DNA of 61,152 nt, filler included, from Basidiobolus ranarum (GCA_040143965.1; 17 parts of 17 records of this genome joined end to end with filler, not necessarily neighbours in it), one strand, 5' to 3'; shown: positions 5,994 to 57,239, numbered from the whole stretch's first letter. Numbers and translations are program-made. The notes: a model not told the origin generated them from the sequence alone.

Positions 5994-6066
5994 GGACTGG
6001 CAGCTCAGTGGTTAGAGCACCTTGCTAGAGTTAAGGAGGCCCCAGGTTCAAATCCTGGCCAGACCA
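5994..6066 (+). tRNA. tRNA-like gene or pseudogene, anticodon AGA, short variable loop
   Basis: 73-nt cloverleaf: acceptor GGACTGG/CCAGACC (one mismatch), D arm GCTC-AGTGGTTA-GAGC, anticodon arm CCTTG-CTAGAGT-TAAGG, T arm CCAGG-TTCAAAT-CCTGG, discriminator A. Position 8 is C rather than U. Confidence 0.7.
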
Positions 6067-11017: not shown

Positions 11018-12746
11018 ATTAATTATCCAACAATTACTTCACATGTCGAAGAGTCAACTTATAGAACGGTAGAAGCATTATCTACTTCGGTAGCCAAAAT
11101 CGCACTGGAGAAATGCCATGTTCCCAAAATCACTGTTAAAATAGAGAAGCCTAGTGCATTGATTTATGCTCAAGGCGCTGGTGTAGAAGTTACTCGTGAG
11201 CAATCAGACTTCCCCGGCAAAATCAATACTAATATTGACTCGGAGGAATGTTTGTCCAAGGTTTACCCCGCCAGGGATGAACATGTTAGTATTCTCGCTA
11301 TTGGTACAAATCTGGGGGATCGTGTAGCCAATATTAAATCAGCGTTGAAAACCTTTAATGAACATCCGAGCTGTAGAGTGGTAGATACATTATTCTTATA
11401 TGAGATGCCTCCGATGTACCTTACCGAACAGCCTCCTTTCCTTAACGCAGCTTGTAAGGTATGACTAAATCACGATAAGGATCAACGACAATCGTTTGTA
11501 ATTCCCTTTCACAAAACATACTGATCATTTACTATTTCTATTATCAGATCTATACCAAGTTGAATCCTATTGACCTTTTGGCACTTTGTAAAAGCATAGA
11601 AAAAATACTGGGAGAGTTACTGCCGTTCGTAATGGACCACGTCCCATTGATCTAGATATTCTATTCTATGACAATATGGAATACAAATCATCTACCCTGG
11701 AAATACCTCACCCACGGATCCAAGAGCGTGCATTTGTGTTAAAGCCACTTTGTGACATAGCCCAAGATTTTGAACATCCCAGACTTTTCCGTACATGTGG
11801 CCAACTCTTATCACAACTTGTTTATGTTCATCCAGAAGTTGAGCAAGAGATCCTAAAAGTCATGCCTATCGGTAACACTCTTTGGAATTGGAAACAAAAA
11901 ACTCATATCATGGGAATTCTTAATGTCACACCCGATAGCTTTAGCGATGGTGGTTTACATAATACCCTCGATTCAGCCATAGAGCACGCTGGGAGATTGA
12001 TCCAACAGGGTGCTGATATTATTGATATTGGTGATATGTCTACACGTGTGGGAGCTGACGAAATTTCAATTGATGAGCAAGTTGGAAGAGTGATACCTGT
12101 TATTAGAGCACTTCGCGAGAAAGGAATAACCATCCCTATATCAGTAGATACATATCGTGCGGAAGTTGCCGAACAGGCAATTGAAGCCGGAGCTGACCTG
12201 ATCAATGACGTATCCGGGGGAGCGCTAGATTCCAAGATGCTTGAAATGATGTCAAAGCTAAACGTGCCGGTTTGCTTAATGCATATCAGGGGTAATCTCA
12301 AGTTTATGGATTCCTTAATCGAGTATAAAAACAACAATGTTATCGCTGATATCGTTGAGAAGTTAAGCGAAAATGTAAAAAGTTGTATCAAACAGGGACT
12401 CTACCGTTGGAACATCATTTAAGATCCGGGCATAGGATCTGCCACAAATTCCGAACAAAACCTCCAGATTTTACGTCATTTACCGGACATCGTTAGTGCC
12501 GAAAACCCCTTGAAGGGCTTCCCCACACTAGTAGGCCCTTCTCGCCAAGGATTTATTGGTAAGGTAGCCGATAAATCAGAAGTCAAACAAAGAGTTTGGG
12601 GCACTGCAGCCACTTGTTCCGCTTCCATTACTGGTGGAGTTAATCTCCTTCGTGTGCATGATGTTGAAGAGATGGTTGATGTTGTTAAAGTTTCGGATGC
12701 GATTTGGAAAGCGAAGACGATTGAAACAAACCAATCAAGTCAATAA
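11018..12746 (+). pseudogene. FOL1: Trifunctional folate synthesis gene (DHNA-HPPK-DHPS), disrupted and 5'-truncated
   Basis: DHNA tail (TVEALS...VKIEKPSAL...GVEVTR), HPPK (IGTNLGDR; FLNAAC; NGPRPIDLDIL), DHPS (MGILNVTPDSFSDGG; ISVDTY; LINDVSGG; LLRVHDV). Intron 11459-11547. One-base frameshift near 11611 and in-frame TAA at 12420-12422 (NII*DPGIG). Confidence 0.9.
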
Positions 12747-14456: not shown

Positions 14457-16887
14457 TCTGTCTAACTCTACACCATATCAAGCTTGGTTTGGAGTTAAAC
14501 CTGATGTAAAACATTTGAGGATCTTTGGATGCATTGCTTATGTCAAAATTATGACCAAAAATTGGTCAAAATTTGATCCAAAAAGTAAGAAATGCATATT
14601 TCTGGGTTATTGTACTCAAACTAGGGCCTACAGACTGTATGATACCAAAATTTCCAAGTTAATCAAGTCCAGGGATGTTTTGTTCAATGAAGTTGAAATA
14701 TTTTCACCCAAAATGACCTCAGATGATGAAAAAAATCAATTTTCTCCTGATACAATTAATCACATTGCTTCAAACAAAAATAATGAAGAAAATAGCGTTC
14801 CTGTGAACCCTTCAACCACAATTTGCCTACTGCAGTGCCCAATTCAATGCCAGGAGTTGTAGTACCTTTATTCCAAACCAGGAGATCAAATCAAATCTGA
14901 AATAGTCCTGATTAATATATCAATGAGTCCCAATATTGGGCCTATGCCTGCACAGCCCAAATACAAGAACCCCAGACTGTAAAAGAGGCCCTGAATGGCC
15001 CTCACATGAAATTTTGGAGATCTGCAATGGCTGCTGAGTACCAGGCTTTGATTGATAATCAAACTTGGATCTTAACCAACTTAACTGATGATAGAAAATC
15101 AATTGGCTGCCTATGGGCATTTAAAGTCAAATACAACTCTGATGGCAATAAAGAAAGGTACAAGGCTAGACTAGTAGCCAAAGGATTTTCTCAAATACCA
15201 GGAATAGACCATACAAATACTTTTGCTCCTGTAGCAAAGTTTATTTCAATTAGATTGATTTTAGCAATTTCAGCTAAATATCAATTTATGATACATCAAA
15301 TGGATGTTAAAACTGCTTTGTTGAATGGTGAGCTTGCTGAGGAGATCTATACAAACCAGCCAGATGGATTTGTGGACCCAGAAAACCCTAAAAAAGTCTG
15401 CAGACTCCAGAAAGCATTCTATGGCTTAAAATAATATCCAAGAGCTTGGAATAGCAAGATAGATTCTTTTTTGGAAACACTCAAATTCCAAAAGAGTAAT
15501 GCTGACTATAATATCTACTTCAGGCTAGATAAGTCAAACCCAGTTGTATTAGCCTTATATGCATATTACCTTATTATAGCAACCAATGACTTGCAGACTT
15601 TGGAAAAAACCAAATCCAGCATATCTGCCAAATTTGAAATGACTGATCTTGGTGAACTGACATACTATCTTAGAATCCAAATTAAGATTGATAGAACTAC
15701 CAAAATACTAACTTTAAACCAGTCTAAGTATATCCTAGATATACTAAAGAAGCTTAAAATGGAAGAATGTAACCCCATTGGAGACAAATCTTAACTTGAC
15801 CAAAAAAAGCTCAAATCAGATGTTTTTGGATTCAAATGAAAGCCAGGAATTTCCTTAACAGTCTATGGCTGGAAGCTTGATGAATATCAAGGTTGGAATA
15901 TAGCCAGATATTGCATATTCTGTGGGAGTTATGTACTAATATCTTCAAAATTATGGATCTGTTCAAATCAGAGCAGTTAAGTGGACTTTCTGATATTTGA
16001 AAGGTACTGTGGATCTATGCTTAAAGTACACATATTCTGGATCAAACTTTGATCTGCTGGGATATTCAGATGCAAATTGGGGAAGAGATATTCAAGACAA
16101 GAGATCTATAACAGAATACTTTTTCTTTGCTATAATGGAGCAATTTCTTGGAATTCAAAGAAACAACCTCCTGTAGCACTTTCAACAACAGAAGCTGTAT
16201 ATATGGCTGCCTGTGAAGCAACAAAAGAAGCAATATGACTAAGAGAATTCTTAACAGATAAGGGTTATTCTCAAAATTTACCAACTACAATATTTCTAGA
16301 TAATCAAAGTTTTATCAAATTAGCTAAAAATCCCATGTTTCAAAACAGAAGCAAACATATAGATATTAAGCATCACTTCATTAGAGAGACCATAGAGAAT
16401 AAGTTTATTGACTTAACTTATTGTTCTACAGAAGATATGATTGCTGATATATTGACCCAACCATTAGCTAGACAGATATTTGAGAAATTTAGACCTTTAT
16501 TAGGATTAGTTTATATGACTATTTAGTTCAGGGAGAGTGTTGAAATTAGCATTGCCTAAGCACCTATATAGTCATATATAGCTAAGTACTTAGTTATCTT
16601 ATAACTCACTATGATATTATCAATTATTCTCAATTGGAATTTACTTGGAATATTTTTACCAACTTGGAAGTTCTCAGATATATAGATTTTTTTCAAACTT
16701 GTGCTAGATGCCTTGAACTTTGCACACATGTTCCTGAGACCTTTCTTAACACATTCTACAAATTAGTTTACTTACATCTTGACAAAACTATAAATGTCAA
16801 CTTTCTACTCTACAGATCAATAAGTGAAAACCACCAATTCCTCTAATTTTGCAAACCACTTCCAACAGGCTCTCAAATACTTTGACA
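14457..16887 (+). mobile_element. Degenerate copia integrase C-terminus, RT and RNase H with 3' LTR (family A, 16538-16887)
   Basis: RIFGCIAYV...KFDPKSKKCIFLGY; RYKARLVAKGFSQIPGID; IHQMDVKTA; RSKHIDIKHHFIRE. PPT followed by an LTR TGTTGAAATTAGC...TTTGACA. Confidence 0.95.
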
Positions 16888-27518: not shown

Positions 27519-27842
27519 CTTTGGAACACCCTTCAAATCCTCGCGTATTGCAACAAACGCCCTCTACTATTCTTTTATGATTATGTTGCCTTATTACCAG
27601 CTTTCATCTGCTGTGTTCTGTTTTACAGATATAGAAATGACAAAGCAAGAGGTGTTCAAATTTATATACGATCGGTTTGGTGCTGCCTCACTATCACCAT
27701 CCTTTGCACCCTGACAAGTATTCATATCTTTTCAAATGAAGATTCGGTTTGCGAAGGCTTGAGTGACAACACTGAAATGGAAAAGCATACCAAATACCAA
27801 TACTTGTTTCTGATTTTATGGGCAAGTACTCTACTGATCTGA
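27519..27842 (+). pseudogene. Hydrophobic multi-TM protein exon or remnant of an unknown host family
   Basis: Open frame LWNTLQILAYCNKRPLLFFYDYVALLPAFICCVLFYRYRNDKARGVQIYIRSVWCCLTITILCTLTSIHIFSNEDSVCEGLSDNTEMEKHTKYQYLFLILWASTLLI*. In-frame homolog at 43279-43400; weak relative (RSVWLCFIT) near 25770. Confidence 0.45.
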
Positions 27843-27945
27843 ATTTTTCATCTATTTTGTTCACTCAACGTTCCGATAGATTTTTAGTGGTACTTCACTA
27901 GGGTTGAATTACCACTACTTTTGTCGTGCTATTGAATCTATCATT

Positions 27946-28362
27946 ATGCAACTGGAATTGAGCGACGCAGACAGAAAAACAGAGATTTTGGAAGCCCAAT
28001 TGAGCGACGTAAACAGAAAAATAGAGATTTTGAAAGCCCAAAACCTTCAGAAGAAAAATATCTTGAAAGCCAGAGTAGAAGAGCGTTTTAAACATGAATC
28101 GGCCGTCATCCAAAGAGAAAAGAGTGACATTGAGAGAAGAATTGAAATTTTGAAAGCCCAAATCTATCATAGTGTTAGCGACGTTGAAAGAAGAACCAAG
28201 ATCACCGAAATGAAAATCACCGAAATGGAATTGAGCGACATCAAGAGAAAAATCGAGATCAACAACAGAAGATTTGAGAATCTGACAGCCAGAATAGAAA
28301 ATTTCTGCTGTTTTCATAATCTTAAATCAGCATCTAATAGTAATGAGGAGAAGCAGTATTAA
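27946..28362 (+). CDS. Hypothetical coiled-coil protein with internal repeats
   Basis: Repeated LSDxxRK/RxEILxAQ units, visible at both DNA and protein level; no recognised domain. Confidence 0.4.
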   Translation: MQLELSDADRKTEILEAQLSDVNRKIEILKAQNLQKKNILKARVEERFKHESAVIQREKSDIERRIEILKAQIYHSVSDVERRTKITEMKITEMELSDIKRKIEINNRRFENLTARIENFCCFHNLKSASNSNEEKQY

Positions 28363-43278: not shown

Positions 43279-43400
43279 TCCTTTGCACCCTGGCAAGTAT
43301 TTATATCTTCCCGAATGAAGCTTCGGTTTGCAAAGGCTTGAGGAGCAACACTGAAATGGAAGAGAATATCAAAAATCAATTCGTGTTTTTGGTTTCATGG
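43279..43400 (+). repeat. Host-type sequence homologous to 27700-27821; flank of the viral-like segment
   Basis: Ungapped alignment, 102 of 122 identical by manual count, same open reading frame. Confidence 0.9.
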
Positions 43401-44367
43401 CGAACACATTATGGACGGCATCGTATTTACCCACAACAAACATTACCACAACAAAATCTACAAATGGAAACATATCGGCACCACCGTCGATCTAGAATGG
43501 AATCCTCTTACCCAAAAATTATCCTGTGGTAACCCACCCCAAGAATTTGACCCAGCAACATCTGGCATCACTAACGTCTTAGACCCCCAACATATCCTTG
43601 ACGTCACAGGTATCTACGAATTTAACATCCTCGAACAACATACCCTGATCTGCTCCAAAAAACGTCCTGACAGAGTTTACGGCAACAACTTAGCCATTGT
43701 CAAAAAAAATATCCAAGACGCCTTAGGCCCTACCCTTTTAGATGGAACACAACAAACTTTCTTCGACCTATGGATCAACATAATCCAAAATATTATGACG
43801 TACACCCCAAACTTTCCCACAGTAAATATCCTACATTTACCAAACTATCCTGACGTTAACACCAAGTACAACATTATTACCCTCTTCCAACTCGATCACG
43901 TCCCAGAACACTTCTCACAACTCCAACCCCTCTTACACCCAATCTCCAAAATTATTGGTATCACAACAAATTTCCCCCATATCCAACAAACCTTAGAAAA
44001 TTACGGCCTCGTCTGCAGATACCAAAGACCCATAGATCTATCCCTCTTCGCCCCAGATACAGAACTTAAACTTCTACAAACTCACACTATCTACGAATTC
44101 TCTAAACCAAACGTCTCCTGGCTTAAATGCAAAGAAACACAACCCCTCCCCGCACATTCTCCTCCCCCTAACATAATCTTCCTCGACACCACACATTCAT
44201 GGGAACCAAAAAAATTATCCAAACCTAAATCTTATTCCAACAAATATATCTTCACCACTCAACACCAAACACAACCTTTCACGATAGACCAACTAAATCT
44301 CTTCCCTCACAATCACCCCCTCGTCCAACAAGCCCTACTTAGACTCAACCATAAATATATTTTTTAA
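43401..44367 (+). CDS. Viral-type mRNA capping enzyme, C-terminal part (guanylyltransferase motifs IV-VI plus reduced methyltransferase-like region), 5'-truncated
   Basis: MDGIVFT (motif IV), IYKWK (motif V), TVDL, IYEF and KRPDRVYGN (motif VI-like OB fold). Downstream KYNIITLFQLDH...LLHPISKIIGITT...LENYGL resembles cap N7-methyltransferase core segments. No introns. Confidence 0.75.
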
Positions 44368-44464
44368 AAACCCTTTTCTTCAACCCTTTTGAATCTATTT
44401 CCCAAATCTATTATTCATACTAACTACACGTATCGCACGCCAATCCCCACCCCGCATACCCATT

Positions 44465-45301
44465 ATGTCCCAAACCATCCTCGGTAAAAAATTTGTTAAA
44501 AAATTACCCCCCATAGACGGACGTGGTATAATTATTCAACACAGCGGGAACCGAATGTATTCCAAATTTGACAACCTAAACGCATTCCAACATTGGTACC
44601 TTAACCTTAAACCAACCCAACGTGTCTTCGCCGAAATTATCGGTACCGGCCCCCAAAAATTTAGATTAGATCTCGACGGTGATATCGTCGACCCCAAACT
44701 CCTTATCCAAGACGTCACAAACTTTTTCGAACTTATGGGCCATGGCACCCCCACCATCCAATTTTACGATATCTCCTCTCCAAACAAACTGTCATATCAT
44801 CTAATAGTCTCCTCCCATTACTTCCTTAATAATATATCTTGCAAAATTTTTGTCGACAGCTTAATGCAATATGCCAAAACTTCCAAATGGACTCTTAACG
44901 CCGACACTGGCGTCTACAAATCTGTCCAAGGTTTCCGACTCGAAGGCAGCACCAAATGGCAACAAAACCGATGGAAATACCTCTTCGGTACCCAACAAAT
45001 TAACAAACGATATTTCTGTGACGGACTTCTGGGCATCGTTAATCCCCAAACTATGCGCCTAATAACTATCCCCCACTCCCAACTCCAAAAACATCTCTCT
45101 TCCCATAAATCCTCCTTGGGCATACCCTCCCACTCCATCCCAACCGGCTTCAAGATTAGACAAACACTAGACAGTGGCCTAATAACATTAGACCGTATTA
45201 AACCAACCTTTTGTGAATTATGCAATAGAACCCATGAACACGAAAATGCATACATGATCGATAACAAATTTATTTGTTTCCGTTTCTCCACTAAAAACTA
45301 A
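44465..45301 (+). CDS. Archaeo-eukaryotic primase (NCLDV/herpes/PrimPol-like) with C-terminal Zn finger, complete 278 aa
   Basis: FAEII, motif I FRLDLD, motif II KLSYHLIV, motif III ADTGVYKSVQGFRLEGSTK, Zn finger FCELCNRTHEHENAY...FICFR. Confidence 0.85.
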   Translation: MSQTILGKKFVKKLPPIDGRGIIIQHSGNRMYSKFDNLNAFQHWYLNLKPTQRVFAEIIGTGPQKFRLDLDGDIVDPKLLIQDVTNFFELMGHGTPTIQFYDISSPNKLSYHLIVSSHYFLNNISCKIFVDSLMQYAKTSKWTLNADTGVYKSVQGFRLEGSTKWQQNRWKYLFGTQQINKRYFCDGLLGIVNPQTMRLITIPHSQLQKHLSSHKSSLGIPSHSIPTGFKIRQTLDSGLITLDRIKPTFCELCNRTHEHENAYMIDNKFICFRFSTKN

Positions 45302-45350
45302 TAGAATCCTTTTTTAAAACACCTCCCCCATCCCCCCATCTTAACATACC

Positions 45351-46776
45351 ATGGAAATTAACCTCTTCTCCGACGAACAAATCCTCAAACTTGCCGACTT
45401 CTGTCTTAACGAACATTGGGATATATACGATTCCAAATTCGGCCCCCGTACCCATGGAGATACATGCACCAAATGCAAAAAACATTGCAGTGGACACTAT
45501 GCATATCTAGACATAGGAAAATATATCTGCCACCCACTGTTCACAAAAGACCTCGAATTAAAACTTAACAACATGTGCATCTCCTGTGGACTTAATATCT
45601 CCAACCCTGATGAAACTAAATGCCCCGAATGCAAAACTAAAATCTCTCGTAACTATTACGTCACAAAAGATGGTACCGTTTTACGCAAACCCACCTCCAA
45701 ATCCTCCAAAGACTCTGGCACCAAAATATCCCTGGACAAAATTCGATCTTCCCTACAAAAAAACTTCGACCGTCACAACAACTCTAACCTCACCAACTAC
45801 ATAATTAGATACATCATCATCCCCCCCATCCAAACTCGATCCCCCGAAGATCCCGAATATATGTCCGATTTCTCAACCAAGTACACCAGACTAGTTAATT
45901 ACACCAAAAATAACGATACCTCTAACATCTACCATACTTACTCCAAAATTGTTGGCACCAAACGAACAGAAGGTATGGGCAAATTCTTCTCCGGAAAAAA
46001 TGGTATCTTTCGCGATATTATGTTAGGCAAACGTACGGAAAGATCTGCCCGTAGCGTTATCACCGGAGATCCCTATCTAGATTACAATACTATCTTCATC
46101 CCCAAATACATCTCTGACAACATTCGTATCCCCATCCGTATTCACAAATACAACATCAAACACTTCTCCAAACAAAAAAATATCTTTTTCCCCAACGGCG
46201 ACTCCCCAATCGATGACCCAGACTTAATTTTTATAAACCAAAATTACGAAAGATTATTATCAGATAACGACGAAGTTATTCTTAACCGCCAACCTTCCCT
46301 AACTAGCACTTCCGTCCTGGGATTTAAAGTTAAAATCCGAAAAGATAACATCAAAACCATCTCTATTAATCCCCTGGTAACCCCATTCTTTAACGCAGAT
46401 TTCGATGGCGACGAGATGAATATTTTTGTTATCCCAAACATAGAACACGAATTTAATATGTTACTTGAAGTCACAAACACCAACCCCCCGTCCCCTATTC
46501 AAGATACTATCACAGGGTCCTATCTTATGACTCTGAATGATGAAGCAATACCTCCCGAAATTTTCATGGATTGCTTCTTATTATCCAAAAAAACAGTCTT
46601 TCCAAAAAATATACGCTTTTCTGGCAAAAACTTATTTCGTCTGGCCATACCAACAAAATGCGATACTACCTTATACAACAGCGAAATTGTCACCAAATCT
46701 GTTTTAAATCATATCCTAAAAAAATTAACTTCCAAACAAGGCGTAGAGTTTGTTTCTAACCTCCAAAAAATCTGCA
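45351..46776 (+). CDS. DNA-directed RNA polymerase largest subunit (RPB1/beta-prime-like), compact viral type, 3'-truncated
   Basis: Zn clamp CTKCKKHCSGHYAYL...HPLF...CISCG...CPEC; GKNGIFRDIMLGKRTERSARSVITGDP; VILNRQPSL; catalytic FNADFDGDEMN; PIQDTITGSYLMT. No introns. Confidence 0.95.
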
Positions 46777-55443: not shown

Positions 55444-57239
55444 CTATTGTGCCAAAGTTTTAACAGGAGTTCTCGGTAGAGTTCCTTTCATTTCAGCAAT
55501 AACATAAGCCCATATAGCCATGGTTGCCGCATTTGCTGGCAAATCCGAGGCATCTAAAGCCTCCATTCGGTCACCTGCAGTATGATGATGATTGAAGTAC
55601 TTATCTTTGAAGGCATCACCTGCGGTAAAACTAGCTCTACCGTCGGAGGTAACGAACCCAACACAAGGTACGCCAGCTCGGGAGAGGATGTCTACATCTG
55701 CTCCAGATTTACCATTTACGACATTCCCCGCAGTGAAGCTTGAGAGGTACTTTGCTCCGATTTTACTAAGAACATGCTGGGCCTTGCCATTATCTTGAAC
55801 CAGTATTCCCCAGGGCTTATAATTACCCAAGTCAGATTCCATAGCAAATACATGCTTGCCAACCTGATTTTTATATTTTTCAAAATAGGTCCGTGCGCCA
55901 GTTGCTCCATACTCTTCATTCACCCAAAAGACAACTCTCACTAGTGATTTCAAGTCAATATCTATGCTTTACCCATACATAATGTAATGGCACTTACCAG
56001 TTCTACGCGGTGGAGTAGGTAATTGAGAAATGAGGCGAAGAGCTTCCCAACCAGTAAAAGCGCCACCACCATCATCTAAGGCACCAACACCAACATCCCA
56101 TGAATCTATATGCCCGCTAATGAGTACAATTTCGTCGGGCTTCTCGCGACCTTTGACATCAACAATAATATTACGAGAAACTTTTGATTTAGGTGTGTAA
56201 GTATTGTGTAGGCGTAGGTTCACACGTGGGCAGGGGAAATTTATCTTGTCGGCATATTGTGCTTCCTCAGATATTGATCGGTTATACATACGACCAAGCA
56301 GATTGGCATCTTCCACAGTGATGGATGCAGCAGGAATGCTAAAGATATGTTTAGCTATGATTTTTCAGAGAAAAAGTGGTTGGATGAAATGATCTACTAT
56401 ACTTGGCTCTAGTACTAGCACCTACATGAACGGTATTTAGAGAATACGGAGTAACTGATCTAACCAATACAGCAATGGCTCCATATTTCTCTGCATTTAC
56501 AGCTCCATTTACCCGGTAACCAACGCTTTCTCCATAGGAGATGAAGGGATTATTGAATAAGACCACTTTCCCTTTTACTGTGTCCTTTACTTCCTCAAGT
56601 TCGTTAAAGCTGCTGACTACTACGACATCAGCAGTTAACCCGTTACCATCGGTGCTAACTGATCGACCCAGTCCCTTGACGTCCAATTCAACTATACCAC
56701 GGGTGGGAGTAAATAATTTCAGCGATTCTTCTTGACGATGCCATACATCAATCTTAACTTTGGTTAGAATCAATGAAGTAGTTGTATTTTCCAAAACATA
56801 ACCCAACCTTGACATTTTGAGTAGTAACTATGAGATTCTTATCCTCCTTTTCGATCGTACGAATAATCCAATCGATTGACTAGCATGATAGTGTTTGCTT
56901 AGAGTTATTGAAGCTGAGATATACAATGACTAATGCCTACATCTTCAAGATTTTTAGAACCTGGAGGTCTGGCACCATAAAGATCAGTCATTTCCGCTAG
57001 CCGGTTCCAAACATTACTACATGATTATACAAGGAAGAGTTAATGGTCATTCCAAGAAGGCAGGCACAAAAGTGAGAATACTTGGATTTCAAGCCTGTCT
57101 CCTTCAGCTGTTCGACAGCTCTAGAAATGTATTCTTCGCTGGTGTGAGCTAAACTGTAGGCATTGCGGGTGTGATCAGTAGCAGCTAACACATAGAGCGC
57201 ACCCACACTAACGGAGAATATTTTTGAAATGTAAGTCAT
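55444..57239 (-). CDS. Carboxypeptidase Q-like M28 metallopeptidase with PA domain and signal peptide, multi-exon
   Basis: VWNRLAEMTDLYGARPPGSKNLE; PA domain VKGKVVLFN...GAIAVLVRS; Zn ligands SGHIDSWDVGVGALDDGGG, VNEEYG, MESDLG, YFNHHHTAGD. Short GT-AG introns separate the ORF pieces. Confidence 0.9.

Follow-up and report, generated by a model that had tools for sequence, protein, structure and literature searches.

The closest described counterparts of the locus analysed here are the fundsalphavirus elements, NCLDV-like endogenous elements of Basidiobolus meristosporus and B. heterosporus, for which the published description reports a split RPB1, encoded by separate N- and C-terminal genes, together with a D6/D11-like SNF2 helicase and RPB5, mentions that some of the elements have retrotransposon sequences nearby, and bases endogenisation on premature stops and frameshifts (Gong, Zhang & Han 2020, PMC7017919). 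The main text of that paper contains no B. ranarum, no capping enzyme and no base-level host junction. Integrated giant viruses with defined host junctions have been described as Mycodnaviridae in Allomyces (PMC13533422), and a 1.5-Mb viral region has been described in Rhizophagus irregularis (PMC10640383); as presented in the main accounts, these cases are supported by long reads and comprise complete viral genomes bordered by inverted terminal repeats. The existence of giant-virus elements in Basidiobolus and of integrated giant viruses in fungi is, from these sources, already known (PMC7017919, PMC13533422). A further point of comparison is provided by the zymocin-type helper/killer virus-like elements (VLEs), which are cytoplasmic, linear and extrachromosomal and have been found in Zoopagomycota (Heneghan, Salzberg & Wolfe 2026, PMC13348850). 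According to the main text of that report, which makes no mention of Basidiobolus, VLEs encode a capping enzyme and an RNA polymerase that derive from Nucleocytoviricota, have protein-primed DNA polymerases and terminal repeats as their defining features, and are themselves without host junctions.

Here we describe a 61,152-nt stretch of DNA (the window) in which a viral-type block on one contig, contig 13, starts immediately after 122 nt of host-type sequence. Like the B. meristosporus and B. heterosporus elements, the nearest relative of the block, the IMG/VR contig L001, has a gene neighbourhood with split RPB1, RPB5 and SNF2 helicase; unlike those elements as described in the main text (PMC7017919), the block has three intact frames. 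With the published accounts of Allomyces and Rhizophagus it shares giant-virus DNA joined to fungal DNA, in our case as a candidate joint, but contig 13 differs from these cases in being a 3.4-kb fragment that breaks within a core gene, has a flank of 122 nt and is represented by contig sequence alone (PMC13533422, PMC10640383). The combination of a capping enzyme with an RNA polymerase is common to contig 13 and the VLEs, whereas neither of the features by which the latter are defined in the report's main text is found on contig 13 (PMC13348850). We found no literature on a B. ranarum element or on a base-level junction in the genus, in a search of the main texts of published papers.

The window and its contigs

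The window is made up of 17 contigs of 3492-3518 nt each, arranged by descending length and joined by N44-TTAATTAATTAA-N44 spacers. Contig 13 occupies positions 43279-46776, and contig 8 (25276-28777) holds a partner copy of the host-type sequence that flanks the viral block. Since 43279 is the first base of contig 13, the left limit of this flank is a contig end and not a biological boundary. Database entries assign proteins encoded by contig 13 and its relatives to Basidiobolus ranarum, with the locus-tag prefix K7432. The remaining contigs look eukaryotic, being AT-rich, intron-bearing and rich in repeats, and their Pfam content includes copia-type gag and reverse transcriptase fragments, a FolB-HPPK-DHPS gene, an amidohydrolase and an M28 peptidase. 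Dispersed repeats with 65-95% identity, largely pieces of copia-type retroelements, are common to 12 of the 17 contigs (1, 2, 5, 6, 7, 10, 11, 12, 14, 15, 16 and 17), and several contigs end inside a repeat copy (contig 6, 134 nt; contig 11, 55 nt; contig 12, 110-115 nt; contig 14, 42 nt; contig 16, 199 nt; contig 17, 92-97 nt). The 3.5-kb contigs of the window are mostly repeat-bounded fragments. The features that matter for the junction are collected in Table 1.

Table 1 Features of the viral block on contig 13, its host-type flank and the related copy on contig 8 (positions are those of the window).
Feature	Position	Strand	Description
Contig 8 copy, exon A	27519-27821	+	Open for 101 codons, hydrophobic, last codon TGG
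Contig 8 copy, putative intron	27822-27879	+	58 nt, GC...AG, phase 0; suggested by the P0004 alignment across the joint
Contig 8 copy, exon B	27880-28362	+	Rest of transmembrane helix, coiled-coil-like tail with EILKAQ-type repeats, stop codon
Host-type flank, last 122 nt of exon A	43279-43400	+	102/122 identical to 27700-27821
Single base C between host and viral similarity	43401	+	Possibly the last base of a viral Tyr codon, or filler
Viral-type mRNA capping enzyme, 3' part	43402-44367	+	37 aa 100% identical to P0003; 78% identical to P0002
ORF2, conserved viral protein, 278 aa	44465-45301	+	Homologues in L001 and L002
RPB1 N-part, viral-type RNA polymerase largest subunit	45351-46776	+	Pfam RNA_pol_Rpb1_2, E 1.4e-29; frame exits at the contig end

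A giant-virus-derived block on contig 13

The most informative gene of the block is the RPB1 N-part, annotated as K7432_016063, which contains the zinc motifs, domain 2 with NADFDGDEMN and the start of domain 3. Its best non-self relative is 42% identical. Among polymerases of solved structure, cellular and viral ones alike are remote, the nearest being Rpo1N from archaea (E 2e-25), followed by Pol II of yeast (~4e-21); with matches as remote as these, the protein is too distant to be the fungus's own RPB1. As a single-sequence query against IMG/VR it gave no match. With an alignment as query, IMG/VR yielded 593 candidate stretches, of which 456 proved to encode relatives; these sit on contigs of 17-400 kb, some of which are labelled as giant-virus MAGs.

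The neighbouring ORF2 is recognisable by invariant motifs (QKFRLDxD, SYH, FRLEGSTK and C..CNR.HEHENAY) and has homologues in two IMG/VR contigs, L001 (11929-12762) and L002 (11934-12785), where it lies directly beside the 629-aa N-part gene of a split RPB1. Identity by tblastn is 35% and 33%, respectively (E 3e-36 and 3e-33), and 35-36% in the alignment. ORF2 has no match in Pfam, in PHROG or in the PDB, the last searched both by sequence and by profile, and its AlphaFold model is too poor for use (mean pLDDT 41). The DxD, SxH and Cys-His motifs could, as we see them, recall a primase, a resemblance that we do not put forward as an identity.

In L001 and L002, homologues of both the capping gene and ORF2 are found within 10 kb of the RPB1 N-part, and the capping homologue is uninterrupted (P0002 residues 21-477, E 3e-28; for P0002, see below). 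L001 also carries an SNF2-type helicase, a UDG and RPB5. The 3.5 kb of contig 13 contain no family-B DNA polymerase, no major capsid protein and no A32 ATPase. With its viral-type RPB1 and with linked genes that are conserved in viral contigs, the block is, judged by homology, a fragment of a 'fundsalphavirus'-type giant-virus-derived element.

The flank belongs to a small family of intron-bearing host-type genes

The flank aligns with contig 8 without gaps (83.6% identity, blastn E 7.9e-33), and there is no second match to it within the window; the next-best match for the first 400 nt of contig 13 has an E value of 0.24. When the gapless comparison is lengthened, the number of identical positions hardly rises (103/125, 104/130 and 105/140), so the similarity between the two copies stops at 43400/27821. 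The frame that starts at 43281 is hydrophobic (LCTLASIYIF...FLVSW) and is open in both copies, continuing on contig 8 for 107 codons (27519-27839). A third copy is K7432_017934 (P0004), a B. ranarum protein of 92 aa encoded on a 1618-bp contig, whose residues 1-37 match 43290-43400 with 68% identity (tblastn E 2e-13). The same protein gives a view of the gene structure: its residues 4-37 match 27720-27821, and residues 38-67 match 27880-27969 in a different frame, so that excision of the intervening 58 nt turns residues 4-67 into one gapless block across the joint (39/64 identical). The part after the joint scores 55, compared with 23.9 +/- 4.1 for shuffled sequences, and none of 500 shuffles reached 55. 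We read the 58-nt gap in the contig 8 copy as a probable phase-0 spliceosomal intron. Its donor, GC rather than GT (GCAAGT), may mark a rare intron class or else a T that changed to C as the copy decayed.

Relatives of this family are scarce. A search with exon A of contig 8 against 1.84 billion representatives, covering all lengths at the 50% cluster level, returned two hits, one of which is a true relative (P0004). The other, P0005, is a 1972-aa repeat protein with 30% identity that we dismissed as a spurious match. A search with P0004, confined to proteins of near length, returned only P0004 itself. The family thus has no relative outside B. ranarum in either search, and it corresponds to no Pfam family. 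The flank and the contig 8 copy differ at 11, 5 and 4 sites in codon positions 1, 2 and 3, respectively, with 15 non-synonymous and 2 synonymous codon differences, which argues that the copies are not under purifying selection. From these sequence features we read the family as small, fast-evolving, intron-bearing membrane-protein genes, of which three copies have been seen (the flank, the contig 8 copy at 27519-28362, and K7432_017934).

Composition also sets the flank apart from the viral block. Its base counts (A35 C22 G27 T38) differ from those of the other 3,376 nt of contig 13 (A1155 C984 G379 T858; chi-square p 2e-4) and do not differ from those of contig 8 (p 0.53). Across 1.5 Mb of sequence from 80 related viral loci the flank family gave no hit, where contig 13, as a positive control, yields 160 HSPs; the conserved 40-nt core of the flank also has no match in IMG/VR, but this negative is uninformative. 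We considered, and dropped, the idea that the flank derives from a small RNA or a SINE; Rfam shows nothing at this position. A preliminary description of this DNA had noted the gapless match of 102/122 and the shared hydrophobic frame, both of which are reproduced here, and had called the flank host-type, on which we agree: it appears to be the end of an exon of an intron-bearing family with host-like composition, and the other copies lie on non-viral contigs. The same description had raised the possibility that the family as a whole is viral, for which the absence of matches in the 80 loci and the spliceosomal-type intron offer no support. Within the limit of three copies, the intron, the composition and the absence from viral loci support a host-type flank, and we take it to be, presumably, nuclear host DNA.

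Capping similarity starts where the host-type exon ends

The capping part of contig 13 runs from a point just ahead of nucleotidyltransferase motif IV (DGIVF) through KWK to the stop codon. KxDG is not found on this contig, and is present on other contigs as SAKIDGER in K7432_018470 (P0003) and as SAKVDGER in K7432_009864 (P0002). The former, a partial protein of 381 aa, is encoded in the same assembly on a contig of 1171 bp and ends in 37 residues (EHIMDGIVFT...EWNPLT) that agree at every position with the translation of 43402-43512; the latter has 517 aa and is encoded on an 11-kb contig. The assembly therefore contains at least two capping-gene lineages (P0003/P0001 and P0002, which is 78% identical to contig 13), making multiple copies plausible. 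Against a cut-off of 29.6 bits for PF01331, P0002 passes with 31.6 and P0003 falls just below with 28.7; the P0003 match covers residues 203-367 and includes the shared EHIMDGIVF...KWK part. The contig 13 fragment has no Pfam match at E <= 0.01. With neither KxDG nor a profile match above threshold, the contig 13 ORF is by its sequence identity a gene fragment, and would not be a functional member of the family. One finding complicates the picture: the C-terminal part taken alone has no match in the 80 viral loci, which suggests that the last ~200 residues of the capping enzyme are poorly conserved, and a search of the PDB with P0002 gave nothing meaningful. P0002 itself tracks the window protein (43411-44367) as far as ...YTPNFPT, then diverges totally and ends early; this divergent end could reflect a frameshift, decay of the copy or an artefact of the gene model.

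P0003 reads across the breakpoint without a mismatch, so that two sequences in the assembly continue the viral block to the left, one intact and the other host-type. The preliminary description had stated that the triphosphatase and KxDG half of the gene is absent: it is indeed not on contig 13, but it is present in the assembly, on the 1171-bp contig. The description had also reported an abrupt switch in composition just before capping motif IV, and this is borne out by the chi-square comparison given above and by the start of capping similarity at 43402, with the E of EHIMDGIVFT. All three copies of the family have TGG as the final codon of exon A, and on contig 13 the similarity to the host family stops with this codon (43398-43400), leaving 0-1 nt between the host and viral parts. 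Just before 43402, where contig 13 reads Gly, P0003 and P0002 have Tyr, and the 20 residues upstream of 43402 in the capping frame have no match to anything. This frame is closed by an in-frame TGA at 43339-43341 and opens at 43342. The host frame continues into the viral DNA for 44 codons in another register, up to a stop at 43530-43532. An in-frame host-viral fusion protein is ruled out, because the host frame is out of the capping register and then stops, as is a 3' splice site at 43400/43401, because no AG precedes the joint. Metagenome contigs contain no match to the 30-mer on the right side of the joint, a negative that carries no information.

Strand bias and intactness of the viral block

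The viral frames are open for 341, 302 and 477 codons, and the truncation at 43401 is the only damage. Contig 13 has a GC skew of -0.425, compared with -0.168 to +0.093 for the other 16 contigs. In all three viral ORFs, third codon positions contain 3.5-5.4% G and 40-42% C, and the spacers at 44368-44464 and 45302-45350 contain 5% and 2% G, respectively. Composition is balanced, with no such strand asymmetry, both in host genes of the window and in L001-L003, the viral relatives. Replicons that remain single-stranded for a long phase typically show a one-strand bias of this kind. The block shows no decay, and its intact frames and host-unlike composition are at odds with long nuclear residence; the better fit is a recent arrival, or an active replicon that coexists with integrated fragments, and not an old fossil. 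That the block comes from contamination with an unrelated free virus is improbable on grounds independent of the joint: the 11-kb contig holds a paralogue with 78% identity, and this type of element has been published from the genus. The junction is the only evidence of integration in the window.

Possible origins of the join

The most likely reading, which we hold with about even confidence, is that the joint is real and that a truncated or rearranged viral copy lies beside host-type DNA. We infer from the contig sequence, rather than from mapped reads, that such a join may exist in genomic DNA. The capping gene would have been broken within its nucleotidyltransferase domain and joined, with at most one filler base, to 122 nt or more of the end of a host exon, and the junction would be the scar of illegitimate recombination or of integration. 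This truncated copy would coexist with a second, near-identical copy in which the capping gene is intact (on the 1171-bp contig). With host and capping frames out of register, the junction would have no function of its own. A real adjacency could also explain why the contig stops 122 nt into the host gene, since contigs here regularly end soon after entering multi-copy sequence; repeat-internal ends are common in the window, and the start of contig 13 would follow this normal pattern. Against a real joint, P0003 already continues the viral sequence intact, so that a host-type continuation is not required to explain that sequence and may be superfluous, and the intact frames and G-poor third positions misfit a long nuclear residence. 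Moreover, the flank measures only 122 nt, and because its nearest other copies are only 84% (DNA) and 68% (protein) identical, its source copy has not been seen. Less likely, but the main rival, is a chimeric contig end, arising from a chimeric read or library molecule or from a graph mis-join, in which case the true left side of the block would be the intact capping gene. The seamless passage of P0003 through the breakpoint, with 100% identity over 37 aa, would be expected from such an artefact, as would a flank of about one read length or one large k-mer at the very end of a contig, and a viral block without any host influence on its frames or its alien composition. A de Bruijn mis-join, however, would need a word common to both sides, and the joint shows none. 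The overlaps of 122 nt and of 111-114 nt (the latter for the 1171-bp contig, judged from the end of P0003) also appear to misfit a single k; being inconsistent, these k estimates were not counted as evidence. Repeat-internal contig ends, moreover, are the rule in the window. The break at the last base of the exon is a coincidence that is left unexplained by random breakage, and so speaks against a real joint, and equally by a random chimera.

It is improbable, although conceivable, that a real join is carried by an extrachromosomal, replicating genome, viral or virus-like, or by a defective variant of one, that captured a piece of a host gene, which would constitute host-to-virus capture and not endogenisation. 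The intact frames are consistent with this, as is the extreme strand asymmetry, which extends to the spacers and is lacking in host genes and in L001-L003, and linear cytoplasmic virus-like plasmids with capping and RNA-polymerase genes have been described in Zoopagomycota (PMC13348850). However, the gene set of L001 is that of the published endogenous fungal elements (PMC7017919) and not, as far as the main texts describe them, that of the helper plasmids (PMC13348850); in addition, the flank is free of the skew of the block, so any capture by a replicon would have to be very recent. The least probable reading is that the 27700 family consists of viral paralogues, in which case there would be no host-virus junction. 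Its orphan status, with a single true relative among 1.84 billion representatives that is likewise from B. ranarum, and its fast evolution (15 non-synonymous vs. 2 synonymous codon differences) could be taken in this direction, but the contig 8 copy has a spliceosomal-type intron, neither this copy nor the flank shows the viral strand skew, there are no matches in the 80 viral loci or in IMG/VR, and the join destroys a capping gene that is whole in the relatives. Finally, the lack of an explanation for the exon-end break keeps an RNA-mediated origin alive at low probability. Reverse-transcriptase template switching could have joined the exact 3' end of the host 5' exon to an internal point of a viral transcript, followed by insertion; the host end would be that of a splicing intermediate or of a processed transcript, and the enzyme could be supplied by copia-type elements. 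Such template switching would account for a break at the last base of the exon. Chimeric retrocopies formed by reverse-transcriptase template switching are known, for example the mammalian U6-L1 chimeras, in which, as would be the case here, one RNA contributes its exact 3' end and a second RNA an internally truncated copy. Unlike those chimeras, contig 13 bears no mark of reverse transcription, with no poly(A) and no target-site duplication, and it has kept three genes together with their spacers, so that the likeness serves as an analogy for the exon-end coincidence only. The fuller version of this idea, in which a giant-virus-derived replicon that replicates itself now, or did so recently, carries a strand-displacement footprint as well as an RNA-made joint produced by template switching, appears very improbable.

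To return to the reading that we consider most likely, a real joint would show, to the base, where host and virus meet in one of the giant-virus-like elements of Basidiobolus. At least one copy would then be linked to host-type DNA while a sister copy retains an intact capping gene, which would point to a recent, still-changing relationship rather than to an old fossil. The intact frames, combined with the extreme strand bias, raise the question of an active replicon in the fungus. If, on the other hand, the joint is chimeric, it would call for caution in taking the contig-end flanks of fragmented assemblies as integration sites.

Other observations in the window

Three genes on the remaining contigs are each interrupted by a single in-frame TAA, located inside the DHPS domain (12420-12422, + strand; RWNII*DPGIG), inside a copia reverse transcriptase (15432-15434, + strand; GLK*YPRAW) and inside the M28 peptidase (55969-55971, - strand), and in each case the Pfam match runs on past the stop. 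The stops in DHPS and in the reverse transcriptase presumably occupy positions where the family consensus has differing residues. Decaying gene copies would be a more likely explanation for these TAA codons than an altered genetic code. In strand bias, contig 9 (28878-32379) ranks second among the contigs of the window (GC skew -0.168, AT skew -0.118), and its sole long ORF has no Pfam match. The only Rfam match in the window is a tRNA gene at 5994-6066 on the + strand (RF00005, 54.8 bits).
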